A stretch of DNA of 50,564 nucleotides from Shigella phage vB_SsoS-ISF002. The stretch lies in sequence record MF093736. The stretch is one strand, 5' to 3'. The translations under genes and the position numbers were made by a program. Positions 1,439-47,010 of the stretch are shown here, piece by piece. The stretch's first letter is position 1, and every line of letters starts with the position of its first letter. Under the pieces are notes generated by a model. The model did no database searches. It was not told the DNA's origin and saw nothing but the letters and a program-made list of their open reading frames with translations.

Positions 1439-1923
1439 AATTCCTTAACGCAATACGCGTATTCTTCAGCGCGTCGGTTCTTGAGTCCTCTAGACACTTC
1501 TCGCTTTTTTGTTTTTGGGTTGTAGTAGTATACCCATCGCCATAACTGATTGCACGCTTCCTTGTGCTTACTCTGATTTATTAGCTTAAGCATTGTAGAA
1601 GATCCGAACGCGCCAGTTCCAACGTTGAAAGTGAAGCTGTACAGTGACGCGCGCATCGTTACCGGAATATCAACATTCACCTTTTTGTCAACGTATCGCT
1701 GAGCGACGCCGATATGTTTTATCAGCAATGCATCGCATTCTCGCTTAGTGTATTTCTTACCAGGTATGACGTCCGGCCCGGTTATTCCGCTGCATACGGT
1801 AGGGACTCCGGCTATATCGTAATACACCTCGTATTCTATACCTTCGATTCGTTCCAGTAGGGTAGGTGTCAACGTCAAAGCGGCCCCGATCGATGCGCCT
1901 ATAACGTTATTTTTTAAGCTCAT
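1435..1923 (-). CDS. endolysin, T4-lysozyme-like muramidase with a possible N-terminal signal-anchor (SAR) segment
   Basis: Catalytic triad spacing E-8aa-D-5aa-T in [19 protein letters not shown]; weakly hydrophobic Gly/Ala-rich N-terminus [17 protein letters not shown]; 162 aa. Confidence 0.8.
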
Positions 1924-2138
1924 TATCTCCCCCTGATCTTAAGCGCCTTATTTAGATCGCCATCGTTTAACGCTTCCTGAATTGCCTTACTATCACGATA
2001 CTTCCAGTATGCACCCCAGGCACCAAAAAGCAGAAAGCAAATGAATGTAGCGCCAGCAATATAAAGTTGCCCTGTCGCCGCCCCTACCAACGAAGCACCG
2101 CCCGTGCTTGACGTAGCTGCTGTTAAAAATTCTTTCAT
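1923..2138 (-). CDS. holin (71 aa from internal ATG; longer 92-aa form possible to 2201)
   Basis: Small protein with a hydrophobic core ([21 protein letters not shown]) and charged C-terminus, directly upstream of the endolysin. ATG at 2138 is preceded by ggtgag. Confidence 0.55.
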
Positions 2139-2256
2139 AATCTCACCATATATTTTTTGAACAAGTGAGTCGATTTTAACCTTCAAATTTACTTGATACA
2201 ACGCAAAAAGGCCAGCATGTAAATCATGCCAGCCTGTAAGGTGATGAATGATATTG

Positions 2257-2433
2257 TTAATCTAGCTCAATAAATTCCAGGTAATGACCGTTCAGAGGGG
2301 CTTGGATTGTTGAACCTCTACCATCGTAAATCTCAAACAATCCACCTCCGAAATCATAACCAACACTATAGATCTGATTTACGCGGAATGGAAGCGTTTT
2401 GGAATCATTTCGGATGCACTTAACTCGTTTCAT
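2257..2433 (-). CDS. hypothetical small protein (58 aa; not in the supplied ORF track)
   Basis: Hand translation MKRVKCIRNDSKTLPFRVNQIYSVGYDFGGGLFEIYDGRGSTIQAPLNGHYLEFIELD*; RBS agaggg before the ATG; a box-like element and inverted repeat lie upstream. Confidence 0.3.
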   Translation of the reverse strand: MKRVKCIRNDSKTLPFRVNQIYSVGYDFGGGLFEIYDGRGSTIQAPLNGHYLEFIELD

Positions 2434-2496
2434 GAAATACCCTCTTTGTTTTCTATGTGGTCAATATACCCGAATCCCTTCGGGCGTTTTTATCAA

Positions 2497-3648
2497 TTAG
2501 TGCGATCCTGTCATTTCTGGACGATAGATGAAGCGACCGATTTCCCCAAACTGCTTATCGTAAACAATTACAGCCGCCTGGCGATATGAGCGCCACCCTC
2601 CGCGTGCTGCGTATGCGTCTTTCGCGCCTAACTGACCGTGTACTTCATCAATACCAAGCGAGTGCTCAGTGATTGTCTGGTGATGCCAGTGACCACTATG
2701 AGTATACACATACTTGCTCTCACCGAAGTCTGATCGGAAATCTGCCGCCATTGCTGCAAGTCGCGTGTCTGCCTTTTTCATAGTGTGCCCGTGAGTGTAT
2801 CCCAACAAGGTATTTCCCCAACGAGTCTTATGCAGAATCATAGGACTAACGTCAACGAATACTCGCGGCTCGTCTTCATAATATGCCGACATTGCAGCTC
2901 GCAGCCAAATCATCCCAGACTGATCGTGGTTCCCTTCGATAACCTGGACCTCTACTTCTTTGTGTTTCATAAGCATTTTGTCGATGGCTCGGCGTACCGA
3001 ACGAATCGCAACATGCACTAATTTTGCGTATCGTGAATCCTGATCAAGAACGTGACCACTTGCCGGGGTAACTGCATCAAGGCCGTCAGAGTGAAGGAAG
3101 TCGCCGCCGATTAACAGAACGGCCTTCTCTGCGTTCGGTGCGATATCGATCGCGTAATTAAAGAAGTCGCTAAGCACTTTTTCCGCTACGTCGGTGGAAT
3201 AGTTCTCACCGCATTCATGCTTATGAGCAAGCGCGCCAATATGGAGATCGAATACCGGATAGAGTGCCAGCTTACCCATCGCTGTCGTAAGCCCTTGCGA
3301 GGTTAGTAGCTCGGTTGGCTTTGCTCGTGGCAGGTCTTCACAGAATGCAATACGCGCAGCTTCCATCATTGCCGCAATCTTCTCACGGTCCTGATCGGTC
3401 TTAACCCATCGCACTACCTCGGTACCATCGCCGCGAATCATCGTTGATGTGCCTTTTACCATGAATCCTTCCGGTACGTTCTTAGCAACATGCTCGTTAC
3501 CGTGGAAGTGACCTTCTTTTGCAAGTTTGGCGTGACGCGCTTCAACTGTGCGGATGTGCATACCGTACTTTTCCGCGATCTCGCGAAGTGTTAGGCCATT
3601 CATGCGCTCTTCGACAAGTTGTTCGGTAGTGATTTTAGCTTGTGACAT
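2497..3648 (-). CDS. calcineurin-like metallophosphoesterase with an N-terminal helix-turn-helix segment
   Basis: Phosphoesterase motifs GDFLHSD, EGNHD, GHTH and GHWHH; N-terminal LTLREIAEKYGMHIRTVEARHAKL resembles an HTH. Confidence 0.7.
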   Translation of the reverse strand: MSQAKITTEQLVEERMNGLTLREIAEKYGMHIRTVEARHAKLAKEGHFHGNEHVAKNVPEGFMVKGTSTMIRGDGTEVVRWVKTDQDREKIAAMMEAARIAFCEDLPRAKPTELLTSQGLTTAMGKLALYPVFDLHIGALAHKHECGENYSTDVAEKVLSDFFNYAIDIAPNAEKAVLLIGGDFLHSDGLDAVTPASGHVLDQDSRYAKLVHVAIRSVRRAIDKMLMKHKEVEVQVIEGNHDQSGMIWLRAAMSAYYEDEPRVFVDVSPMILHKTRWGNTLLGYTHGHTMKKADTRLAAMAADFRSDFGESKYVYTHSGHWHHQTITEHSLGIDEVHGQLGAKDAYAARGGWRSYRQAAVIVYDKQFGEIGRFIYRPEMTGSH

Positions 3649-3726
3649 ATTTTAATCCTTACATGATAATGAAATACATTACTAAAAATGAAATTAGCGG
3701 TGTCAATACTACAGCAAAATAAAGAT

Positions 3727-4128
3727 TCATGCCACAGCCTTTAACCAGAATCCTAGATCTGACGATTTAAACTCAACCAGCTTTCCGTCAACCTCAAGCA
3801 TCATACTGTTTCTACCAGGTGAGTAATAACCTATATGCAACTCCTGATCGATCCCTATGGTACACAGCACGTTTGCGAAGTCAGGAGGCAACCAATCAGA
3901 GAAAGGTATTTTCTTAACCTGCTTCTTTCCGATCCATATGGTCTGGTAATCGTCTTCGTTAATGTTTAAGCCTGGAAGGCTTGTTGTTCTTTGCTGCTTT
4001 TCGTTCTCTCTCAATTCTCTTTCCCTCTTCACGATAAAACTCAAGTGACGGAGTTGCTGGCACTCTATGCATTTTTCTCGGCATATCTTCCATAAATGAA
4101 ATCTTGCCGTTTGAAATAATGCTAACAT
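3727..4128 (-). CDS. hypothetical protein; 5' end uncertain
   Basis: ORF overlaps the 3' end of the 3959..4231 ORF in another frame; ATG at 4128 has a poor RBS; an internal TTG with an agggaaagaga RBS is an alternative start. Confidence 0.3.
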   Translation of the reverse strand: MLALFQTARFHLWKICREKCIECQQLRHLSFIVKRERELRENEKQQRTTSLPGLNINEDDYQTIWIGKKQVKKIPFSDWLPPDFANVLCTIGIDQELHIGYYSPGRNSMMLEVDGKLVEFKSSDLGFWLKAVA

Positions 4129-4231
4129 CCTTTATATCGAAGTATTTAGCAATTAATGCTATATCGCCTGAGATCCCGCATTCCTTTGCGTGCTCCCACA
4201 CTTCGCGCTTACCTTGCTTTTTTATCAGCAT
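3959..4231 (-). CDS. hypothetical protein (90 aa)
   Basis: ATG at 4231 preceded by ggagaaaa. Confidence 0.4.
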   Translation of the reverse strand: MLIKKQGKREVWEHAKECGISGDIALIAKYFDIKDVSIISNGKISFMEDMPRKMHRVPATPSLEFYREEGKRIERERKAAKNNKPSRLKH

Positions 4232-4433
4232 TAGTTATTTTCTCCACGTCAGAGATAAAGCCTTCGACTTCTTCAACCGAGCAACGGTAATAAGACATTT
4301 TAAGGAAGTTCATAGCAATATCCCAATCGAAGTTGCCGCCTTGCTTGTTCGTAATATGAACGGCCATTTTTGCAGACTGCTGGGCGATATTGAAAAAGTT
4401 TGCGTTAATGCGTGCCATCTTCTGATTCCTCAT
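4209..4433 (-). CDS. hypothetical protein (74 aa)
   Basis: ORF about 43 nt downstream of a box unit with a TATAGT -10-like hexamer. Confidence 0.4.
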   Translation of the reverse strand: MRNQKMARINANFFNIAQQSAKMAVHITNKQGGNFDWDIAMNFLKMSYYRCSVEEVEGFISDVEKITNADKKAR

Positions 4434-4475
4434 TTCGTTTCCATGAAATAACTATACCCGACTTTCGCCGGGTAG

Positions 4476-4494
4476 TTTTAGCAATTAGTGCTGT
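4476..4494 (-). promoter_or_regulatory. conserved intergenic box (variant)
   Basis: Plus strand reads ttttagcaattagtgctgt; it contains the stop codon of the gene above it. Confidence 0.45.
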
Positions 4495-4736
4495 GTGATT
4501 ATCTCAGAAGAAAGTTCTTCTACGTCTTTTTGGATGATTAATGGCCAATTCTCAATGTATTCATTCCTTATCTCTTCGAAAGACATATCAAGAGAACTAG
4601 TGAACTCCCACAGATCGCAACCAATAACATCCTTAGTCAATCCATTTCGCTCCATAATCTCGCAGCACGTAGCTCGATAAAGTAGCCATAAACCTTGCTC
4701 AGTTAATTTAACAGGAACCATTTTTTCGCTCATCAT
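4485..4736 (-). CDS. hypothetical protein (start at internal ATG overlapping the Dam stop, ATGA)
   Basis: RBS ggtgaggaaag before ATGATG; the start overlaps the upstream stop, suggesting translational coupling. Confidence 0.45.
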   Translation of the reverse strand: MMSEKMVPVKLTEQGLWLLYRATCCEIMERNGLTKDVIGCDLWEFTSSLDMSFEEIRNEYIENWPLIIQKDVEELSSEIITQH

Positions 4737-5446
4737 ACTTTCCTCACCTTTGCTCGTTTGTTTTTCACCGAAGGGCAAATGCTTGTGATTGGGATGTAGT
4801 GAGTCTGTTGCACCTCACCTTCTTTAAGTTCGCGCATAATAAAAATTACCGAACCTTTGTTATTACCGTCTACGGCCTTTCCAGTTTCACCGGATATGAA
4901 AGCCAGACGACCGGATCGTGCGTATTCATTGCCGTCAATATCCTCAGTCAAATCAGCTTCAATCCAGATGATTTCAGCCGCGTGCTGTCGAGCCTCAGTA
5001 AACCACGCAGTCGAGTTATCGGCAGGTAAAAGAATATCGATCTGGTTGTTGTGCTCCATTTGCTCAATCGCTTTCTTGACGAATATATCAGGTCGACTGT
5101 AAGGAGGGTTTAACCATACGTGCTTATTTTTACCCCACCAACGTTTTAAGCAGTTTGTTTCCTGGGAATAAAACTTCTCGCAAACTTTATTTTCTTCGCT
5201 TGCCGCAGCGTCGAGATCATATTTTCCGTAGCGACCCTCAAGGTATGCGATAACCTCGCGTGGGGTTGACCATAAATCACGAACTGCGTCAGGTGTATTG
5301 GTTCCCTTGTATCGACGTCCTGAAATCTCTTTGCAGGTTGGCGTTTTCAATGCTTGATAATAACCGCCTGATGCTATTGCTTCACGAGTGAATGAGCACC
5401 CAGTTTCTGCAAAGTCGATTGTTTCGATATCGTTAAAGTCTTTCAT
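4733..5446 (-). CDS. dam: DNA N6-adenine methyltransferase (phage Dam family)
   Basis: Motifs RDLWSTP and WLNPPYS. Confidence 0.8.
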   Translation of the reverse strand: MKDFNDIETIDFAETGCSFTREAIASGGYYQALKTPTCKEISGRRYKGTNTPDAVRDLWSTPREVIAYLEGRYGKYDLDAAASEENKVCEKFYSQETNCLKRWWGKNKHVWLNPPYSRPDIFVKKAIEQMEHNNQIDILLPADNSTAWFTEARQHAAEIIWIEADLTEDIDGNEYARSGRLAFISGETGKAVDGNNKGSVIFIMRELKEGEVQQTHYIPITSICPSVKNKRAKVRKV

Positions 5447-5498
5447 TTTTAATCCTCTCGTTTCGGTGAGATAATAATGCCAGATTCCATTCCGGCGG

Positions 5499-5517
5499 TT
5501 TTAACAAAAAGTGCTAT
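5499..5517 (-). promoter_or_regulatory. conserved intergenic box
   Basis: Plus strand ttttaacaaaaagtgctat; contains the VRR-NUC stop (TAG); about 55 nt upstream of the Dam start. Confidence 0.5.
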
Positions 5518-5930
5518 TTCGTTAAATCGTATATTGCCAGCTTGAATTGCTCAAATCCGTATGCAACGGCAGAGAATCCACCGCGATCCCGAACCTTTTT
5601 GAGAAACTCCCTTTGCTTATCGCTGACTGGTGACGCCTTTCCCTTGCCGGACTTATTAACCCGTTTGAGTTCGATAGCTGCGAACGGGTAACGTGAGTTT
5701 ACACCAATCAGGATAACGAAATCTGACACACCTTTAAGTAATCCAGCCTGCTCATCCCTGAGTGCTGAAGTGATTGTTTTTTCACCTTCATTTACAGTGT
5801 GCCAAAATAGAAGGTGTGGGAAGTTGTATTTCAGCCAGGAAACGCAATCTACCTGATGAGCGTCCTCCTTTCTCGTGTCGCTAGGATCTCTCTCGTAAAA
5901 TTCTAAATAATCACCTTTGTCTGTAATCAT
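5514..5930 (-). CDS. VRR-NUC domain nuclease
   Basis: PD-(D/E)XK-like arrangement (SDFVILIG ... AIELKR); directly downstream of and overlapping the helicase gene. Confidence 0.65.
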   Translation of the reverse strand: MITDKGDYLEFYERDPSDTRKEDAHQVDCVSWLKYNFPHLLFWHTVNEGEKTITSALRDEQAGLLKGVSDFVILIGVNSRYPFAAIELKRVNKSGKGKASPVSDKQREFLKKVRDRGGFSAVAYGFEQFKLAIYDLTK

Positions 5931-8005: not shown

Positions 8006-8026
8006 GTTTTTAGCAAAAAGTGCTAT
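8006..8026 (-). promoter_or_regulatory. conserved intergenic box upstream of the helicase
   Basis: Plus strand tttttagcaaaaagtgctat, about 60 nt upstream of the helicase ATG. Confidence 0.5.
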
Positions 8027-13676: not shown

Positions 13677-14203
13677 TGCGTTTATCTCCTTCGTTTACGA
13701 TGAATCCATTATAGCCATTAACGGCGTTTAGTCAATCGAATACATGTAATTGGTGTGTAATAGCGTGTCTATATCGCTCAAGTTACAACCAGCATTAACG
13801 GAATCAATTGCTTAAGTCTATTTTTATGTGATGTCTACTGTGTAATACTTGTAACCGCTTTTTCTTAGAAATACAGAGATAGCTACAAGTAGAATCCATA
13901 TTGATTAAATTTTGAACATATATGATAGAAATTTGACGAATCAATCAAATCACCAGTTACACGATAGACAACTGTTACACAACAATAATTATATATATAA
14001 AGCTAAAATTAAATATTATCTATCTATATATATTATATAGAGTTTTTATCATATCCCTCTGCTGTCGGGTGGGGTGGATTTTGTAACACCCGCTCCGGTT
14101 ACAAAAATAGACACCCGTTACACGAAAAAAACTGTAATCGTGCTATTGCAATAAAAGTAAATGCGACATACAATGCAATCACACTAACGACGAGGACATA
14201 CAA
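13677..14203. promoter_or_regulatory. AT-rich divergent intergenic control region
   Basis: 527 bp non-coding; atatata tracts; GTTACAC repeats; palindrome TTGTAAC-N10-GTTACAA at about 14080..14103; TAGACAACTGTTA element shared with the 44.9-kb region. Confidence 0.5.
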
Positions 14204-18871: not shown

Positions 18872-18918
18872 GATGTTTACCTTTTTGTGCTATTTATCGG
18901 TGGACTCATTATACAGGC

Positions 18919-18944
18919 GAAAAAAAACCCGCGCAAGGCGGGTT
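18919..18944 (-). terminator. terminator-like hairpin between I and J
   Basis: aaaaaaacccgcgcaaggcgggtt; 7-bp stem; U-run on the minus-sense transcript. Confidence 0.45.
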
Positions 18945-18948
18945 AATT

Positions 18949-19548
18949 TTAACTCATATCCTCGGCATAAGAACCTGCTGAGAAAGTTGCGCCACCTCCG
19001 GCGCGATATCCATACGGGACCGGGAGAGGGTATCCCGCCGCCGTCGTATTGACAGCACCGCCGAACGCGTACGAAGGTTTATTCTTGCTTGATTGAACTT
19101 CAAAGTTTGCGCCACCCGGCTGCGGTGAAATCATCTGCATCACGCCGCCCAGCACCATAGCGCCGCCCATCATAAACAGAGACGAGGACATTGTGCCCAT
19201 TAAAGCCAGAGACGCGCCGCCAGTATAGAATGCTGCAACCATTATTGCCGCGCCCAATACAACCTGGAATAGACCTCCTGTCTTAGAGCCAGTAGGGATC
19301 GGTACGATTCTTATCTCTTTCGCGCACTTGAATTTTTCCTCTTCATGGTGTCCAACGTTAACGCCATCCACAAATATTGCAAACTTGCTACGAGATCCTA
19401 TCTCGCTTTGCATGTATTCTTTGAATCCATCCACCTGACTGGATAGCGCCCGGATAGCTTCCGGGTAAGAGTCAACGGCGAATCTGTGAAAGACGCCGAA
19501 GCGCCTTCCAAGTGAACCTGATAATTTGATTACTTTTACATCATTCAT
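18949..19548 (-). CDS. tail assembly protein (lambda I-like)
   Basis: Position after K; Gly/Ala/Met-rich hydrophobic C-terminal half typical of I proteins. Confidence 0.65.
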   Translation of the reverse strand: MNDVKVIKLSGSLGRRFGVFHRFAVDSYPEAIRALSSQVDGFKEYMQSEIGSRSKFAIFVDGVNVGHHEEEKFKCAKEIRIVPIPTGSKTGGLFQVVLGAAIMVAAFYTGGASLALMGTMSSSLFMMGGAMVLGGVMQMISPQPGGANFEVQSSKNKPSYAFGGAVNTTAAGYPLPVPYGYRAGGGATFSAGSYAEDMS

Positions 19549-21058: not shown

Positions 21059-21099
21059 TGATTTTTCCTCTTGTTTACCTGCAACCATTCTACAGCTAC

Positions 21100-21128
21100 A
21101 AAAAAACCCGCGCAAGGCGGGCTTTTGT
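21100..21128. terminator. hairpin between L and M, sharing a 22-nt core with the hairpin at 18919
   Basis: aaaaaaacccgcgcaaggcgggcttttgtt. Confidence 0.4.
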
Positions 21129-21137
21129 TATGTGGCG

Positions 21138-24367: not shown

Positions 24368-24406
24368 ACAACCCCCTTATATACAAAAAAACCGCCAGAC
24401 GGCGGC

Positions 24407-27474: not shown

Positions 27475-27765
27475 TTAATAGTATTCGCCGCCGTCTTCAA
27501 GCTCTTTTACGCTCATCTTATCCCACGGATCAGGTTTTTTAAGTTTAGCCATCTCTGCGCGGATTTCCCGGTTGGTGGCACTGTCGTCTTTTACTTCGAT
27601 TTCTTCGCGAGCAATCAAGCAACGCAGCCCGGGCAATTCAAGTGCGGATGCTGGGAGTGTCACCTCTTCATCCGGGAGAACCTTTGCGAATGAGCCATCT
27701 TCAAGACGGAACATCTGAAGCGCTACACCAACGTTTACGATAACAACAGTTTTTTCTTTAGCCAT
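27475..27765 (-). CDS. hypothetical structural protein (96 aa)
   Basis: ORF between the major capsid and connector genes. Confidence 0.45.
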   Translation of the reverse strand: MAKEKTVVIVNVGVALQMFRLEDGSFAKVLPDEEVTLPASALELPGLRCLIAREEIEVKDDSATNREIRAEMAKLKKPDPWDKMSVKELEDGGEYY

Positions 27766-27780
27766 TTTGATTTCTCCAAT

Positions 27781-27807
27781 AAAAAAGGGACCAACTAAGT
27801 TAGTCCC
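27781..27807 (-). terminator. hairpin after the major capsid gene
   Basis: aaaaaagggaccaactaagttagtccc. Confidence 0.45.
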
Positions 27808-27814
27808 TATAATA

Positions 27815-28774
27815 TTACACGCCAGTGATTAAGACAATAGTCATCGGACGATAAATTGTAAGGCCAGTACACTTGGAGGTGCAAGGCACTTTAAAGTGAA
27901 GGTCTTTCGGCTGCGCTGGCAGCATGTTAAATGCTTCCGGGATCTCGATGGACATATTCATCGGATTTTTTTCGTACACCAGTACGCCTTTAGTACCCGC
28001 ACCGTCGATATCTTCAAGCTCTGCGATAGAGTCGATTTCGATACCAGCATTCTGAGACTTGAAATAGTCCAGGTAAGACATGGTAGTTTCAGGCATACGG
28101 ATCGCCAGAACCTTACGCATGGACGGCGGGATCAGAATGTTGGTTGCACGATGCTGACCGCGAGTAATCGTCTCGATGGTTTCAATCGCCTGAGTCAATT
28201 CCGCTTCAGCCGTTTCCGGCTTCGGAGTTGAGACATTCATCCACTTACCGGAGGTAATTTTGGTGATGTTCGGATGGTTGAACACGGACACGATCTTGTG
28301 CGGCGCGGAACCTTTGAACACCAGACGGTTAACCAGTTGGTCATGCGCTAACTGACACGCGCTTGCCTTGCGGGTTGACAGCGGTCGACCAGTTGCCTGA
28401 CCTGCTTTGATTTCGTCGATTGAAATCAGGTACGCGTTACCCAAGCGGAACACCTTACCGAACTCAGAAGTACCAAGCGCATCAACCAGAGGCAGGTCAT
28501 CTGTATAGTCAGCGATAATCTGCGCAGTACCAACCTTATCAAAGGTCATATACTCAAACGTCTTGTCGGTCGGAGATAGATCGGTAGTAACCGGGAATAC
28601 TCGAAGTGCGGAGCCTACCGGGTAGTCTTCTTCATAGGACTGGCTTTTGATGCGGTGTAGTTCCTGAGCGGTCCAGATACCCATCGTTGCGGCTGCATCC
28701 TGTTTTACGCCAGCCTGGATCAGATACATTTCAACATTGCTCTTATCTGCTTCATCAAATTTTTTAGTAGTCAT
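27815..28774 (-). CDS. major capsid protein
   Basis: 319 aa, strong RBS aaggaga, flanked by hairpins, located after the scaffold and decoration-like genes. Confidence 0.7.
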   Translation of the reverse strand: MTTKKFDEADKSNVEMYLIQAGVKQDAAATMGIWTAQELHRIKSQSYEEDYPVGSALRVFPVTTDLSPTDKTFEYMTFDKVGTAQIIADYTDDLPLVDALGTSEFGKVFRLGNAYLISIDEIKAGQATGRPLSTRKASACQLAHDQLVNRLVFKGSAPHKIVSVFNHPNITKITSGKWMNVSTPKPETAEAELTQAIETIETITRGQHRATNILIPPSMRKVLAIRMPETTMSYLDYFKSQNAGIEIDSIAELEDIDGAGTKGVLVYEKNPMNMSIEIPEAFNMLPAQPKDLHFKVPCTSKCTGLTIYRPMTIVLITGV

Positions 28775-35553: not shown

Positions 35554-35577
35554 TTTACCATATTGCAGGCATAAAAA

Positions 35578-35595
35578 AACCCGCCGTAGCGGGTT
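35578..35595 (-). terminator. hairpin upstream of the terminase operon
   Basis: aaacccgccgtagcgggtt preceded by an A-run. Confidence 0.45.
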
Positions 35596-35603
35596 ATTGA
35601 TTA

Positions 35604-37364: not shown

Positions 37365-37384
37365 GTTTTAGCAATTAGTGCTAT
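37365..37384 (-). promoter_or_regulatory. conserved intergenic box
   Basis: Plus strand gttttagcaattagtgctat. Confidence 0.5.
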
Positions 37385-37953
37385 TTGTTGATGAACGTAG
37401 CGGCTATGTGCTGAGCGGTAATTTCAGGATGACCCTCAACAGAGAAGAAATCACATTCCTGATAACCGTTAACCCCGATCATATCGTCCAGGTAGATATA
37501 ATCGCGACTGTCGTTATCGAAGTTGCAACCGTTGCGATGTATGCGGCATAGCTTGACCTGGATATCGCCTTCAATCATTTGCAAGATCTCGTCTTTGAAT
37601 CCCCCGTCAGTAAATACCGAAAGTGAGTGCGACTCTTTAACCTTACTTTCCGCTCGCATACCGAAGAATCGATTTCCGAACTGCGGCTTGATGACTTCCT
37701 CGCTAATCCAGATCATAAACTGGCGCGGGCTTTTACCGTTCAGGATTGACGCTGGCTCTTCTTTGTAACGACGGTCCTCATACAAGAACATGAAATACTC
37801 GTAGTTAGTTTCACCCAAGATTGCCCGAGCAATCTCAAACATTGGTGCTTTGAAGCTGCGGAGCGCTACGTGATCGTAAGTGTCAGCCAGGATGCATCCG
37901 ATAGTGTCTTTTCCCGCTCCAGGTGCGCCGTTTAAAATGATAGCTGTTTTCAT
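37381..37953 (-). CDS. P-loop kinase, candidate polynucleotide 5'-kinase
   Basis: Walker A GAPGAGKDT at the N-terminus; paired with a HAD phosphatase gene. Confidence 0.55.
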   Translation of the reverse strand: MKTAIILNGAPGAGKDTIGCILADTYDHVALRSFKAPMFEIARAILGETNYEYFMFLYEDRRYKEEPASILNGKSPRQFMIWISEEVIKPQFGNRFFGMRAESKVKESHSLSVFTDGGFKDEILQMIEGDIQVKLCRIHRNGCNFDNDSRDYIYLDDMIGVNGYQECDFFSVEGHPEITAQHIAATFINK

Positions 37954-37954
37954 G

Positions 37955-38065
37955 TTAGTATCTCCCTAAAAATAACTTTGCCACATTGATGATAGTGTGA
38001 TTGATGATTAACAGGATGATAACCGTCAATACCGGATGTGCTGCAATAAATTCGTATAGGTTCAT
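37955..38065 (-). CDS. small hydrophobic peptide (36 aa; not in the supplied ORF track)
   Basis: MNLYEFIAAHPVLTVIILLIINHTIINVAKLFLGRY*; its ATG overlaps the phosphatase stop (ATGA). Confidence 0.3.
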   Translation of the reverse strand: MNLYEFIAAHPVLTVIILLIINHTIINVAKLFLGRY

Positions 38066-38595
38066 TCATCCACCCCGTGAGATTTTAAATGATCGTGAAC
38101 GTTATCGCCATAGTCAACTACAGCGTAAGTGGTTATTCCAAGCGAGCGGAATAATGGAATAATTTGCGGTGAGTCATCCCAGGCCGCCAGAATGTTATCA
38201 ATGCCGATCGCGCGCACCGCCTCTTCTTTCATTACTGTGTCTTTCCGGTTATCGGTGTGTGGTCGCATAATCAGGTAATCATATCGAGCGCCGTGATGCT
38301 TAAGCCACAACTCAGATGCGTAACGCACCTCATCACTTCGCCCGGTTAAAATGATCACATGATAACCAGCGGAAAACATAGAGTTCATCACATCGATCGT
38401 GCTTTGGATAGGGTTGTCAAATATTGCCGCGCGGTTAAACTCGGACCAGCTTTCAGTCAAGTGCAAATCTTTTGTCGGCAGCAAATGAAGTCTACCGGAT
38501 CCGTCACTAAGTGTCCCGTCAAAGTCAAAGATTGCGACGCGGCGCGGACCGAGAAACAGGTTGATTGTCTGGCCCCAAATGGTGATTTTATCCAT
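38062..38595 (-). CDS. HAD-family phosphatase, candidate polynucleotide 3'-phosphatase
   Basis: HAD motif I FDFDGTLSD near the N-terminus; downstream motif ILTGRSD. Confidence 0.6.
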   Translation of the reverse strand: MDKITIWGQTINLFLGPRRVAIFDFDGTLSDGSGRLHLLPTKDLHLTESWSEFNRAAIFDNPIQSTIDVMNSMFSAGYHVIILTGRSDEVRYASELWLKHHGARYDYLIMRPHTDNRKDTVMKEEAVRAIGIDNILAAWDDSPQIIPLFRSLGITTYAVVDYGDNVHDHLKSHGVDE

Positions 38596-38660: not shown

Positions 38661-38679
38661 TTTTAGCAATTCGTGCTAT
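38661..38679 (-). promoter_or_regulatory. conserved intergenic box
   Basis: Plus strand ttttagcaattcgtgctat. Confidence 0.5.
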
Positions 38680-40700: not shown

Positions 40701-41206
40701 TATTTCACCTCATAGCGGACGAGCGTTCCGCGCCTAATGCTGATTTCACCTGATACCGTCTTGTTCTTGAAGCCGCCGTGATGCAATAGAATCGTGATGA
40801 TATCGTCGTGCACCTCAATAGTTTTTGGTGTCGCGGTAATCTCAATCCAAGAATCGCTGCTAATCTGGACACCTTTTAGCGTTGCGCTAAGTGGCACATT
40901 CTCGATCTGAGTGCACTGTAGCGATGGCTTGATTTCTGGCTTTGCAGCTTTGAATATTGAGCCTTCAATCTTCCAGCTATCATACAAGCTGTAAGTATTC
41001 TGATTGTCGCTCATAATGTAGTAGTAGTCCTTATCTGGTGAATTTTCTTTATTCACTCCGTTATGTCTGGCAATAAACCACTCCAGCTTAAGCTGCGATA
41101 CCTCATCAGTGGCCCACGTTCCCTTATCTTCACTGGTGAACGTAATTTCACCACATCCCATGCTGATAAATTTGATCGGGAATTTGACATCTTCTAATTT
41201 CAACAT
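40700..41206 (-). CDS. hypothetical protein (168 aa)
   Basis: ORF preceded by a box unit. Confidence 0.45.
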   Translation of the reverse strand: MLKLEDVKFPIKFISMGCGEITFTSEDKGTWATDEVSQLKLEWFIARHNGVNKENSPDKDYYYIMSDNQNTYSLYDSWKIEGSIFKAAKPEIKPSLQCTQIENVPLSATLKGVQISSDSWIEITATPKTIEVHDDIITILLHHGGFKNKTVSGEISIRRGTLVRYEVK

Positions 41207-41262
41207 AATGATTTCCTCTTAGTGGTTGATATGGGGATTGTACCAGTCAGGCCAAATCCCCT

Positions 41263-41281
41263 TTTAACAATTCGTGCTTAG
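41263..41281 (-). promoter_or_regulatory. conserved intergenic box (variant)
   Basis: Plus strand ttttaacaattcgtgctta. Confidence 0.45.
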
Positions 41282-41766
41282 TAAACCAACTCGCACTCAA
41301 TATCGAACGGCTCGGCGTTGCAGTGGAAGAAGCAAAGTGCCTCTTTATTCATCCCGCCGATAAATCCAACGGCTCGCAACTGCTCATCGTTAACGTATGC
41401 CAGGTTGCTAGTAATTCTTTCAAAGTCAACGATAACCGGGAACGTGCGATTCTCATACCCCGAGCGCATCGGGTAGCCGCCATTACTGAGAAGTCGAACC
41501 TTGCGCGGCTTAGGATTTGCTTGGACTTCCCATTCGAAGAAGAACATCGTTCCGTCATTCTCGTTAAAGTCAGCCGGACCAAATACATGGCTAACCGAAA
41601 GTCCATAGTCCAGATCGTACACGCCAGCTTTAACCAGATCGTCAACCTTAACGCGGTAGCCTCTAGTGCTGGAATCACACTTCACCGCATCAACCACGAT
41701 AGGGTCAGCTTCCAGGTCGCGAGTAAAGCCTTTGTAACCGCCAGTGCACAGTAATTTAATTTTCAT
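41278..41766 (-). CDS. hypothetical protein (162 aa)
   Basis: ORF preceded by a box unit and the leader catcgacaacgaa. Confidence 0.45.
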   Translation of the reverse strand: MKIKLLCTGGYKGFTRDLEADPIVVDAVKCDSSTRGYRVKVDDLVKAGVYDLDYGLSVSHVFGPADFNENDGTMFFFEWEVQANPKPRKVRLLSNGGYPMRSGYENRTFPVIVDFERITSNLAYVNDEQLRAVGFIGGMNKEALCFFHCNAEPFDIECELVY

Positions 41767-41821
41767 GTTATCGTCCTCGTTCGTTGTCGATGTGGTTACT
41801 ATATCGCAACCACATGATCGC

Positions 41822-41841
41822 GTTTTAACAAAAAGTGCTAT
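41822..41841 (-). promoter_or_regulatory. conserved intergenic box
   Basis: Plus strand gttttaacaaaaagtgctat. Confidence 0.5.
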
Positions 41842-42029
41842 TCTTTAATTTCGAAGCAATCCGTATCTTCATCGAATACCCAGGGATCGCCATTATCATC
41901 AAGCAATGAGATGTTACCGAAGCTGGTTAGCGAAGCGTTATAAGGCTTGTCGACAGTAAAGCACTCCTTTACTTCCTCATCTTCGCTACCTTTGAATACT
42001 GCAATCATTTGGTGCATAAAATCAGCCAT
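41838..42029 (-). CDS. hypothetical protein (63 aa)
   Basis: ORF with ATG start. Confidence 0.4.
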   Translation of the reverse strand: MADFMHQMIAVFKGSEDEEVKECFTVDKPYNASLTSFGNISLLDDNGDPWVFDEDTDCFEIKE

Positions 42030-42038
42030 TTTTAAATC

Positions 42039-42212
42039 CTATTCGCAAGTGATCTCATTTGATGTGATTGGTAGCAAAACATTGCCAACCATCACAAACG
42101 TAGTAACCTGGCTCCCGGTCTTGTGACAGCTATCTCTGACCTCTCCGCAGCCTGAAACTATCAGGATAGCCAGAGCGACCGACACCATCATGCAAATCAA
42201 TATTCGCATCAT
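42039..42212 (-). CDS. small lipoprotein (57 aa from the ATG overlapping the upstream stop)
   Basis: MMRILICMMVSVALAILIVSGCGEV has a signal peptide and lipobox (VSGC). Confidence 0.4.
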   Translation of the reverse strand: MMRILICMMVSVALAILIVSGCGEVRDSCHKTGSQVTTFVMVGNVLLPITSNEITCE

Positions 42213-42319
42213 TCGAACGCCCCAGCACACAAGAGCAACATTACCACGATGCCAACCATGACGTGACCCATGCAGAAGAACCAGACGGCAGACCATAAAG
42301 CAATTGTATTGAAGTTCAT
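42209..42319 (-). CDS. small transmembrane peptide (36 aa from RBS-supported ATG)
   Basis: MNFNTIALWSAVWFFCMGHVMVGIVVMLLLCAGAFE; RBS gaggtg. Confidence 0.4.
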   Translation of the reverse strand: MNFNTIALWSAVWFFCMGHVMVGIVVMLLLCAGAFE

Positions 42320-42543
42320 TTTAGCACCTCGATCTTGTTGTTGCCGATTGAGTTCTCTACGATCGCTTGCGAGTTTTCTCCCGTGATTCGTATGTAGAAG
42401 TTGCCAATCGCCGCGAAGTTCCACTGACCGCGCCATTTGAAATAAATTCCGTGCTTTGCACCCATAGCGTAGTGAGTGGATTTTGCCGGAATCATGTACC
42501 CGTTTACGTGGGTGAGTTTAGTCTGTTTATTGTAACGTGGCAT
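42316..42543 (-). CDS. hypothetical protein (75 aa)
   Basis: ORF whose stop overlaps the next start. Confidence 0.4.
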   Translation of the reverse strand: MPRYNKQTKLTHVNGYMIPAKSTHYAMGAKHGIYFKWRGQWNFAAIGNFYIRITGENSQAIVENSIGNNKIEVLK

Positions 42544-43582: not shown

Positions 43583-43602
43583 TTTTAACAAAAAGTGCTA
43601 TT
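43583..43602 (-). promoter_or_regulatory. conserved intergenic box
   Basis: Plus strand ttttaacaaaaagtgctat; contains the TAG stop of the upstream gene. Confidence 0.5.
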
Positions 43603-44605: not shown

Positions 44606-45217
44606 GGCTTGCAGGTCGATTTTAAGTGTGGTTAATCGTGTTAATCGTGTTAATCGCTTTCCCCATATAAATATGAGCCGATAAAACTACTGTATATATA
44701 AACATGAATACAATAATCAGAGCATCCAACGATTAACATAGTAGACACGCTATACAACCATATTACAGATAATAGTATCTATATATATAAATAAAAAAAA
44801 TACTTATATATTATATATATACATATAGATATATGTATATTATAAGGCGTAATTTGGTGTAATTTTGTCTACTATTGAGATTCAGGCAAATTGTAGACAA
44901 CTGTTAACACACGGTCAAGTGTAACCGTAATCGATAGCACGTTTTGCTAAAAATGGAGATAACCACCAGGCGAACCGGGTAACACCAGATCCTCCCTCTC
45001 ACAATCATTGCATTCTAAGCAACAAATAAACCAACTGTTGCACACCGTGCAATAATCACGTTTCATCATTCGTAATCAATAACAATCAAGGTTATTACAC
45101 CTATTCCAGTATTGATGGAATAATGAGCAATTATTGGAATAGCATTTTTTGCTAACGACTCGGTCGGGTAGGTCGGGTATAGTCCGGCCCATAAACCAAT
45201 CAGAAGAGGAAGCAACA
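44606..45217. promoter_or_regulatory. AT-rich divergent control region between the two arms (candidate origin, packaging or early-promoter hub)
   Basis: 612 bp non-coding; tatatata tracts; 3 tandem GTTAATCGT 9-mers at 44631..44657; boxes at 44934 and 45138; CAACTGTT elements at 44897 and 45034. Confidence 0.5.
44631..44657. repeat. three tandem 9-bp repeats (gttaatcgt, gttaatcgt, gttaatcgc)
   Basis: Direct reading. Confidence 0.9.
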
Positions 45218-45922
45218 ATGAAATTAATCTGGTCACTATTCGACGGTTCAGGTCTTGCAGGTCATGAGCTAGCAAAGCAAGGCCATAAGGTGATGTGCTT
45301 CAACTTTGACGGAGCCGATCACGGAGATTACGCAAAGTACAACGCCAGGGTTGAGCATCATAACATTGAGTATGTGAACGTCTTTATTAATGAGAAGTTC
45401 GAACGTGATGCTATCGCGGGTGTGTATGGCAAGCCTGATTTCATCATGGCATTTCCTCCATGCACTGACCTGGCTGTTAGTGGCGCTGCTCACTTCGCAA
45501 GAAAGCGTGAGCGAGATCCGTTATTCCAGGAGAAGGCTGTTGCTACCGCCCGGATTGCTGCGAATATTGGCGACTCTCTTGGCGTGACTTACATAATTGA
45601 GAATCCGGTGAGTGTCCTGTCATCTGCCTGGAGAAAACCAAATCACTCCTTCAACCCCTGGGAGTATGGCGGCTATCTTCCTGAGAATGACGCACACCCC
45701 TGGTTCCCTATGTATATTGCGCCGCGCGATGCTTATCCGAAGAAAACTTGTCTTTGGACCTCGGACGATTTTGTCATGCCGGAGAAAAAACCTGTAAGCC
45801 TGCCTGACGGGTACTCTACGCAACACAGCAAGCTGGGCGGCAAGTCGGCAAAGACGAAGCTGATACGATCCCTGTCGCCTCGTGGATTTTTCAAAGCGAT
45901 CGCAAATAGCACTTTTTGTTAA
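45218..45922 (+). CDS. compact DNA (cytosine-5)-methyltransferase-like protein
   Basis: Motif I-like LFDGSG, catalytic PC-like FPPCTDLAVSG, ENV-like IIENPVS; start at ATG with RBS gaggaagcaaca. Confidence 0.5.
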   Translation: MKLIWSLFDGSGLAGHELAKQGHKVMCFNFDGADHGDYAKYNARVEHHNIEYVNVFINEKFERDAIAGVYGKPDFIMAFPPCTDLAVSGAAHFARKRERDPLFQEKAVATARIAANIGDSLGVTYIIENPVSVLSSAWRKPNHSFNPWEYGGYLPENDAHPWFPMYIAPRDAYPKKTCLWTSDDFVMPEKKPVSLPDGYSTQHSKLGGKSAKTKLIRSLSPRGFFKAIANSTFC

Positions 45923-45925
45923 AAC
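45906..45925 (+). promoter_or_regulatory. conserved intergenic box overlapping the 3' end of the methyltransferase gene
   Basis: atagcactttttgttaaaac; its TAA is the gene stop. Confidence 0.5.
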
Positions 45926-46825: not shown

Positions 46826-46995
46826 TCGTATATATCGTTATGGGCGGCGTTACATATGAGGGTGAATATGTAGAGACTGTTCACCTTGATGAGAAGAAGG
46901 CGAAGCAGTACGAAAACAGAATGAAGGAACAGATTCGCGCCGGAAAAAGCATGTACGACTACACGACGATTGTTGAGAAGGAAATTACCGAATAG
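46822..46995 (+). CDS. hypothetical small protein (57 aa; not in the supplied ORF track)
   Basis: MIVYIVMGGVTYEGEYVETVHLDEKKAKQYENRMKEQIRAGKSMYDYTTIVEKEITE*; RBS ggagga; its stop TAG is inside a box. Confidence 0.4.
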   Translation: MIVYIVMGGVTYEGEYVETVHLDEKKAKQYENRMKEQIRAGKSMYDYTTIVEKEITE

Positions 46996-47010
46996 CACTT
47001 TTTGCTAAAC
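46992..47010 (+). promoter_or_regulatory. conserved intergenic box
   Basis: atagcactttttgctaaac, followed by the inverted repeat gggatgac / gtcatccc around tggtatagt. Confidence 0.5.

Follow-up and report, generated by a model that had tools for sequence, protein, structure and literature searches.

One gene of Shigella phage vB_SsoS-ISF002 (sequence record MF093736; "the window" below is the whole stretch of 50,564 nucleotides that was analyzed) encodes what is currently the leading candidate for the enzyme with which T1-type phages destroy the host chromosome. Its product of 383 amino acids (aa) joins an N-terminal helix-turn-helix (HTH) to a calcineurin-like metallophosphoesterase (MPE) domain, and the invariant metal ligands of the family predict an active enzyme. 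That this enzyme acts on nucleic acid we consider probable; that it is a stand-alone, HTH-tethered DNase breaking host DNA for nucleotide salvage, functionally like protein A1 of phage T5, is our leading reading, held tentatively and given somewhat less than an even chance. We infer that the substrate is DNA, that host DNA is targeted and that its breakdown serves salvage. Two questions converge on the gene, namely which gene serves host DNA degradation and recycling in T1-like phages, and what the reverse-transcriptase defense DRT7/UG10 senses. The protein was already known, with near-identical copies on deposit and T1 gp16 in GenBank from 2004; it is an ordinary, highly conserved family member, and its interest is that of a concrete and easily testable candidate.

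All five calcineurin-like MPE motifs, which supply the binuclear metal ligands, were read from the protein (gene and domain coordinates are in Table 1): motif I, F-D134-L-H136-I-G; motif II, GDFLHSD (residues 182 to 188; G182-D183, plus H186); motif III, EGNHD (residues 238 to 242; N240-H241); the motif IV region, G-Y-T-H-G-H-T (THGH at 285 to 288, ligand H286); and motif V, GHWHH (residues 319 to 323; G319-H320-x-H322). The initial annotation, made from the letters of the DNA, had listed the strings of motifs II, III and V correctly; its literal "GHTH" does not occur, the protein reading T-H-G-H-T, and it had overlooked D134-L-H136 of motif I. The architecture that it had proposed, an HTH-like N terminus ahead of the MPE series, was borne out by the AlphaFold helices, by HTH matches in relatives and by a sub-model of the N terminus, all described below. 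The domain searches that it had suggested gave a mixed result. Pfam Metallophos (PF00149) reached 16.0 bits (E = 0.017) where the cut-off is 21.5, and Pfam HTH models matched residues 10 to 46 at E values of 0.011 to 0.1 (Sigma70_r4_2, 0.011; HTH_23, 0.014), the best at 15.8 bits against a cut-off of 25.7; since both domains stayed below threshold, a domain search alone is insufficient to settle the architecture. No Mre11-specific Pfam match was obtained for the 383-aa protein, and NCBIfam returned only PdeM (E = 0.095) and a sigma-70 model (E = 0.072), with no match to an SbcD/Mre11 model. PHROG 704 ("DNA repair exonuclease") matched from end to end (E = 3.6e-157; protein residues 4 to 380, profile positions 2 to 389 of 390); PHROG 284 was the other PHROG match.

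The family is known, very large and placed within a known superfamily, and it is biochemically uncharacterized. Searches with tblastn found a homologue in 2039 phage records, covering Drexlerviridae, Dhillonvirus and Jerseyvirus, phages of Vibrio, Campylobacter, Aeromonas and Sinorhizobium, and N4-like roseophages. In an exhaustive HMMER scan of 1.84 billion representatives, 4648 clusters (50% identity) passed E <= 1e-3, of which 966 also passed E <= 1e-30. Annotations within the family conflict, ranging over "DNA repair exonuclease," "proof-reading exonuclease," "phosphoesterase," "DNA binding protein" and "LysR regulator." Bacterial genome assemblies were scanned with a degenerate DNA pattern for G-D-x2-H-x-D-x5-T-P-x6-D-x-D-x-R, the family-specific stretch after motif II, which yielded 120 loci, 111 of them confirmed as family members by the family hidden Markov model (HMM). 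Several confirmed copies lie on megabase contigs or complete chromosomes, so the family is carried by prophage-like elements too, mostly in Proteobacteria. One phage record, MG065688.1 ("Campylobacter phage A110b," 44 kb), holds at 27516 to 28643 a copy with 96.8% protein identity to the gene of Escherichia coli phage Bas03 and is probably mislabeled or a contaminant.

Conservation was read from two alignments, of 134 and 114 members, 30 to 84% identical to the query. D134, H136, G182, D183, N240, H241, H286 and H322 never vary in either; G319 never varies in the larger and keeps at least 90% conservation in the smaller, a level that H186 and H320 reach in both. Invariant metal ligands argue for an active enzyme under purifying selection rather than a degenerate MPE scaffold or sensor. 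Near-invariant positions specific to the family are G75, W81, E145, T194-P195, D202, D204, R206, R262, D344 and R356. Pfam Metallophos was matched at E <= 0.01 by 26 of the 114 relatives (best, 2.7e-5). The linker module, with near-invariant G75 and W81, is kept in distant relatives whose HTH fails to align, and distant phage homologues align from about residue 58 to 66 onward.

An AlphaFold2 model (134-sequence alignment) reached a predicted local distance difference test score (pLDDT) of 92.5 and a predicted template modeling score of 0.79. It is laid out as a three-helix bundle (residues 8 to 16, 21 to 27 and 32 to 44; pLDDT, 94 to 96), a hairpin plus helix, a lower-confidence linker and an MPE sandwich from residue 123 to the C terminus (pLDDT, 95 to 98), the last having the alpha/beta-sandwich fold of the superfamily. 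Its structural neighbors, with their scores, were the proofreading exonuclease subunit DP1 of PolD (16.1), Thermotoga maritima Mre11 (14.8), Staphylococcus aureus SbcD (14.6), MJ0936 (13.9), LpxH (13.7) and other Mre11 structures (about 13). Foldseek returned Mre11 and DP1 intermixed with Vps29, GpdQ and Rv0805, at low TM-scores, and matches in BFVD were mostly uncharacterized viral proteins, some labeled "DNA polymerase II small subunit." A search of the PDB with the single protein sequence found nothing meaningful (E about 1) and no close solved relative. With the family profile, the sole MPE matches among PDB sequences were T. maritima Mre11/SbcD, weakly (E = 0.09), in an alignment that laid D-x-H over its counterpart and the G-D-L-L-H-S of Mre11 over the family G-D-F-L-H (H186). 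By these comparisons the nuclease branch of the MPE superfamily is the nearest, by a small margin.

The likeness to Mre11/SbcD is centered on motif II, where the Mre11-type G-D-L-[FL]-H is present as G-D-F-L-H186; the motif II histidine has a catalytic role in Mre11. Unlike Mre11/SbcD, and unlike T4 gp47 and T5 D13, the phage protein has no capping domain, since in the model it ends with the MPE core, and it has an N-terminal HTH instead. The partner ATPase is missing as well: no Rad50/SbcC-type gene was found in the genome (by ISF001-type annotation) or beside relatives in four other phage groups, nor was one among the recurrent neighbors in the roughly 8-kb windows of the 111 bacterial loci. 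Compared with PolD DP1, identity is 12%, the OB-fold/DP2-interaction region was not identified in the phage protein, and the annotation of the phage holds neither a DP2 partner nor any DNA polymerase gene.

At the N terminus, the turn pattern I24-A25-x2-Y28-G29-M30-x4-V35 fits a classical HTH, with A25, G29 and V35 canonical. Among the 114 relatives, Pfam HTH matches were spread over HTH_1 (23), HTH_8 (15), Sigma70_r4_2 (12; best E = 1.5e-9), HTH_50 (12), HTH_28 (9), HTH_23 (9), GerE (6) and others, and the N terminus of the family profile matched HTHs of GerE/LuxR type among PDB sequences, weakly (GerE, E = 0.021). An HMM of the N-terminal 52 residues was found in 131 of 146 representative clusters, a test with some circularity, many of these sequences having gone into the HMM itself, and in 77 of 96 complete bacterial copies. 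Some relatives carry two HTHs or other extensions of 120 to 210 aa, and some have no detectable HTH. The HTH is a family-wide feature, present in approximately 80 to 90% of members, and is predicted to bind DNA.

The window is approximately 98% identical to Shigella phage ISF001, whose annotation is collinear over its whole length; it is therefore a complete T1-like genome (Drexlerviridae, Tunavirus). The gene DNA is 97.7% identical to ISF001 gp06 and 91 to 96% identical to many Tunavirus genomes. Full-length syntenic orthologues are T1 gp16 (ST16; 72% identity), Bas01_0050 of phage Bas1 (66%) and TLS gp66 (63%). Together with ISF001 gp06 (full-length identities, 63 to 98%), they show one HTH-linker-MPE architecture, with no difference of substance in the protein, and they occupy one slot, between a helicase/VRR-NUC block (plus dam where present) and a holin-endolysin-spanin cassette. 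In the window, the minus-strand order is helicase, VRR-NUC, Dam methylase, three small open reading frames (ORFs) and the HTH-MPE gene, followed by a 58-aa ORF, holin, endolysin and spanin; the position upstream of the holin is common to ISF001, T1, TLS and Bas01.

The ORF, its motifs, fold class, orthology, distribution and gene contexts were established here; toxicity, the DRT7 escape locus, host DNA breakdown by T1 and TLS, and the A1 phenotype come from papers on orthologues or analogues only. Every Bas1 escaper of the DRT7/UG10 reverse-transcriptase defense that was sequenced had mutations, missense or frameshift, in Bas01_0050, described there as "a nucleic acid-targeting phosphoesterase" and so toxic in E. 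coli that it could not be co-expressed with DRT7; the lambda escapers mapped to gam (bioRxiv 10.64898/2026.02.16.706125). Escaper mutations and toxicity together indicate that the orthologue is dispensable for plaques, harmful to cells and linked to DNA metabolism. T1 and TLS degrade the host genome enzymatically and re-use its nucleotides, the responsible gene being unidentified in the 2024 re-annotation of TLS, where gp66 is listed as "proof-reading exonuclease" (PMC11447400). Literature searches for other escape-mutant or functional reports on the family found only the DRT7 preprint.

The functional analogue is T5 A1, a predicted metallophosphatase structurally like double-strand-break repair and proofreading nucleases, which is toxic, is necessary and sufficient for digestion of the host chromosome, and acts together with the DNA-binding protein A2 (bioRxiv 10.64898/2026.04.02.716235). 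Like A1, the T1-type protein is a phage-encoded, stand-alone predicted metallophosphatase, and its Bas01 orthologue is likewise toxic when expressed alone; a motif III of the form [GS]-N-H-D-x2-S-x-W-L is common to both. Specific homology was tried, by single sequence against profile and then by profile against profile, and rejected: with two A1 alignments, the catalytic domains aligned by hhalign at a probability of 13 to 14%, centered on motif III only, and A1 (T5 locus 1706 to 3376) matches phrog_1745 only. The analogy to A1 is functional only, no homology being detectable beyond the superfamily. The two also differ in that A1 (PHROG 1745, as against 704) has 556 aa, is essential and pre-early and is also needed for second-step DNA transfer, whereas the T1-type gene is dispensable and lies outside the first-expressed region. 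In many A1 homologues (about 530 aa, 45 to 49% identical to A1), an HTH of HTH_23, HTH_38 or GerE kind at residues 6 to 46 replaces the first 70 or so residues of A1, and it aligns with the T1-type HTH, which is equivalently placed (hhalign E = 1e-4; probability, 56%). The design of an N-terminal HTH plus a solo MPE is thus common to two separate MPE families of phages, in one of which degradation of host DNA is established. A separate A2 in T5, as against the HTH in A1 homologues, suggests a split-versus-fused relationship; A2 itself showed no similarity to the T1-type HTH.

Gene neighborhoods add a partial link to nucleotide metabolism. All ORFs in the windows around the 111 bacterial loci were clustered, and no neighbor was universal; the recurrent ones were endolysins of three families, upstream (37 loci), a trypsin-like protease (16), a dATP/dGTP diphosphohydrolase domain (dGTP_diPhyd_N), immediately downstream (13), a deoxynucleoside monophosphate (dNMP) kinase (10), a DUF1937/nucleoside deoxyribosyltransferase-like gene (6) and large terminase (6). 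At least one of the three nucleotide-metabolism neighbors occurs at 24 loci, whose MPEs are only approximately 39% identical to each other, so this link is not the effect of a single lineage. In roseophage DSS3phi2 the family gene follows dCMP deaminase, dATP/dGTP pyrophosphohydrolase and thymidylate synthase, and on a metagenomic contig a dUTPase_2 gene lies two genes downstream of a family member. The window itself encodes a dNMP kinase (Table 1), as does TLS in Gp14 (PMC11447400). We infer that the kinase of the window would be the downstream salvage step for dNMPs from degraded DNA.

A mechanism can be proposed in which the HTH and the beta-hairpin/helix module would hold the enzyme on duplex DNA, and the binuclear center (D134, H136, D183, N240, H286, H320 and H322) would hydrolyze phosphodiester bonds, with H186 and H241 in Mre11-like roles and without a Rad50/SbcC-type ATPase. 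During infection it would attack the host chromosome, the dNMPs being re-used via the phage kinase; it would be dispensable for plaques and toxic to the cell through DNA damage or end load, and its activity or DNA products may be what makes T1-like phages visible to DRT7. The initial annotation had named a DNA-binding nuclease in host DNA processing as one option, and this has become the leading hypothesis, plausible on the Mre11-type motif II, the salvage-gene neighbors, the toxicity and DRT7 escape of the orthologue, and a T1/TLS gene still being sought. The fuller claim, that the HTH-MPE protein is the T1-type host-chromosome enzyme, a single-chain counterpart of T5 A1(+A2) whose DNA products or end load activate DRT7/UG10, and belongs to a widespread class, is a possibility that we hold with more doubt, at about one chance in three. 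If true, "HTH-tethered solo MPE DNases" would be widespread and previously unrecognized phage host-takeover nucleases, spread over more than 2000 phages with sequenced genomes and over many prophages. Host DNA degradation governs the frequency of generalized transduction, and the gene therefore matters for the safety of therapeutic Drexlerviridae.

Several observations weigh against host DNA breakdown by a tethered DNase. The structural margin to the nuclease branch is small, and the Mre11 sequence match alone, at the E value given above, is not significant. The HTH domain, with a pI of 8.2, is not strongly basic, and homology to T5 A1 is not detectable beyond superfamily motifs at the hhalign probability already quoted. 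The neighborhood signal is confined to 24 of 111 loci. The family is common in prophage-like loci, and wholesale destruction of host DNA is less expected of temperate phages. The gene stands at the end of the replication block, next to lysis genes and not among the earliest, and phage DNA would have to be spared in some way.

Much of the same evidence could be read as a nuclease that processes DNA ends or hairpins for recombination-dependent replication, in the manner of SbcD/Mre11, or that perturbs ends handled by RecBCD, host DNA not being its target. Mre11, SbcD and DP1 are the structural neighbors that this would call for; the phage carries a RecE-like exonuclease VIII, Erf and SSB, the gene lies within the replication/recombination block, and DRT7 escapers in lambda gam (a RecBCD inhibitor) and in the Bas1 orthologue suggest a shared effect on DNA ends. 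We nevertheless consider it unlikely, because the gene is not adjacent to recombination genes, the family is flanked by genes for lysis, terminase and nucleotide metabolism, not by recombinases, an SbcC/Rad50 partner and a capping domain are lacking, and strong toxicity of the protein alone fits indiscriminate DNA damage better. The nucleotide-metabolism neighbors (dNTP pyrophosphohydrolases, dUTPase and deoxyribosyltransferase-like genes) would also suit an enzyme of the nucleotide pool, and so would a non-essential gene: a small-molecule phosphodiesterase acting on cyclic (oligo)nucleotide signals, nucleotides or alarmones, in an anti-defense or metabolic role, with the HTH serving autoregulation or localization. 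That explanation is improbable in our estimate. It sits poorly with an HTH kept in 80 to 90% of members, the Mre11-type histidine in motif II and toxicity in E. coli without the phage; loss of the gene helps the phage to escape a defense rather than sensitizing it, and neither PADLOC nor known anti-defense families gave a match for the HTH-MPE protein.

A further alternative, also put forward in the initial annotation, is a regulator that binds a conserved box, TAGCAC-N4-TG-N-TAAA, and controls phage gene expression. The HTH does resemble sigma-70 region 4 and LuxR/GerE types, a copy of the box sits at the 3' end of the gene, and sigma-70 promoters are scarce in T1-like genomes (PMC11447400). 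The box is confined to Drexlerviridae among the family loci examined, however: the loci of Dhillonvirus, Jerseyvirus, Vibrio phages and roseophages lack it, and of the 120 bacterial loci from the pattern scan (111 confirmed as family copies) only 2 carry it. The Bas1 orthologue can be frameshifted and plaques still form, an outcome not easily squared with a factor on which more than 20 gene starts depend; the catalytic residues do not vary, and the genome encodes a separate predicted transcriptional regulator (ISF001 gp13/T1 ST23). The proposal found no support in these results, and we regard it as highly improbable. The HTH-tethered DNase acting on host DNA stays the preferred reading.

The box occurs 26 times in the window, against 0.27 copies expected, mostly in the direction of transcription (example copies are in Table 1); three copies (9551, 25064 and 28831) are oriented against the flanking genes. 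It matches a 21-nt direct repeat of TLS, also noted for T1 and Rtp (PMC11447400). Most intergenic boxes are followed by a hairpin whose stems vary between copies while mostly staying complementary, with TATAGT or TATAAT in the loop and 3' arm, and at many boxes the hairpin is followed by a conserved CATCGA(A/C)AACGA and then by a ribosome binding site and start codon. Read on the opposite strand, the hairpin and the TAAAA of the box form an intrinsic-terminator-like site. The copy at the 3' end of the HTH-MPE gene probably belongs to the start of the next unit (the small ORF and the lysis genes) and does not bear on the function of the protein; the same arrangement follows bas01_0050 in Bas01 (locus 5133 to 5149).

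Table 1. Positions of the HTH-MPE gene, its domains, selected box copies and nucleotide-metabolism genes in the window.
Feature	Coordinates	Strand	Remarks
HTH + MPE gene	2497..3648	minus	Complete coding sequence, 383 aa + stop, ATG start
Shine-Dalgarno AAGGA	3656..3660	minus	7 nt 5' of ATG; read from the sequence
N-terminal three-helix HTH	3517..3627	minus	Residues 8-44; recognition helix 32-44
Family-specific linker module	3334..3480	minus	Residues 57-105; beta-hairpin (62-71, 77-86) + helix 88-103
MPE catalytic domain	2500..3282	minus	Residues 123-383
Box copy at the 3' end of the gene	2489..2505	minus	TCGCACTAATTGATAAA, 1 mismatch; overlaps last codons + stop; hairpin follows
Box DNA sequence			TAGCACTTTTTGTTAAA
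Box copy, example	726-742	plus	
Box copy, example	5500-5516	minus	
Box copy, example	8009-8025	minus	
Box copy, example	37367-37383	minus	
Box copy, example	38662-38678	minus	
Box copy, further	41824-41840	minus	
Box copy, further	43584-43600	minus	
Box copy, further	45907-45923	plus	
Box copy, further	46993-47009	plus	
Deoxynucleoside monophosphate kinase	37381..37953	minus	phrog_139, E = 5.1e-47; hypothetical in ISF001; early region
Short polynucleotide kinase/phosphatase-type protein	38062-38595	minus	phrog_415; adjoins the dNMP kinase gene

The locus of the gene is itself mosaic. The first 60 residues (3469 to 3648) are 97% identical to those of T1 gp16 (T1 locus 40822 to 41955) and the remainder approximately 65%, so the N-terminal module has been exchanged by recombination, with a joint near the boundary between HTH and core. 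T1, TLS and Bas01 have a homing-endonuclease gene adjoining the orthologue, whereas the window has none. HNH homing-endonuclease genes lie beside the orthologue in T1 (ST15, 42028 to 42510), TLS (endY, 3966 to 4637), Bas01 (bas01_0051, 5204 to 5689) and a Vibrio phage (6064 to 6573; all locus coordinates). In Jk06 and Shigella phage 2019SD1 the orthologue apparently lies in pieces, over several ORFs or sites, and splitting may likewise be behind the fragment-length matches in Salmonella phage 36 and roseophage RDJL Phi 1. The HTH-MPE gene looks like a hotspot for homing endonucleases.

Upstream of the gene, a sigma-70-like TTGACA-N16-TAGTAA(T) at 3706 to 3678 failed the -10 criteria of the promoter scan and is not claimed. 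AT-rich repeats of TATATA type at 13988 to 14039 and 44769 to 44838 coincide with the two regions where transcription switches divergently, in line with turns in the GC skew, and may be origin-like or regulatory. A repeat, AAAAAAACCCGC...GCGGG, stands between late genes at 18907 to 18951, 21086 to 21130, 24382 to 24405 and 35559 to 35603; read along the minus (coding) strand, it gives a GC-rich hairpin and then a T-run, and late transcription units are probably separated by these elements acting as intrinsic terminators.

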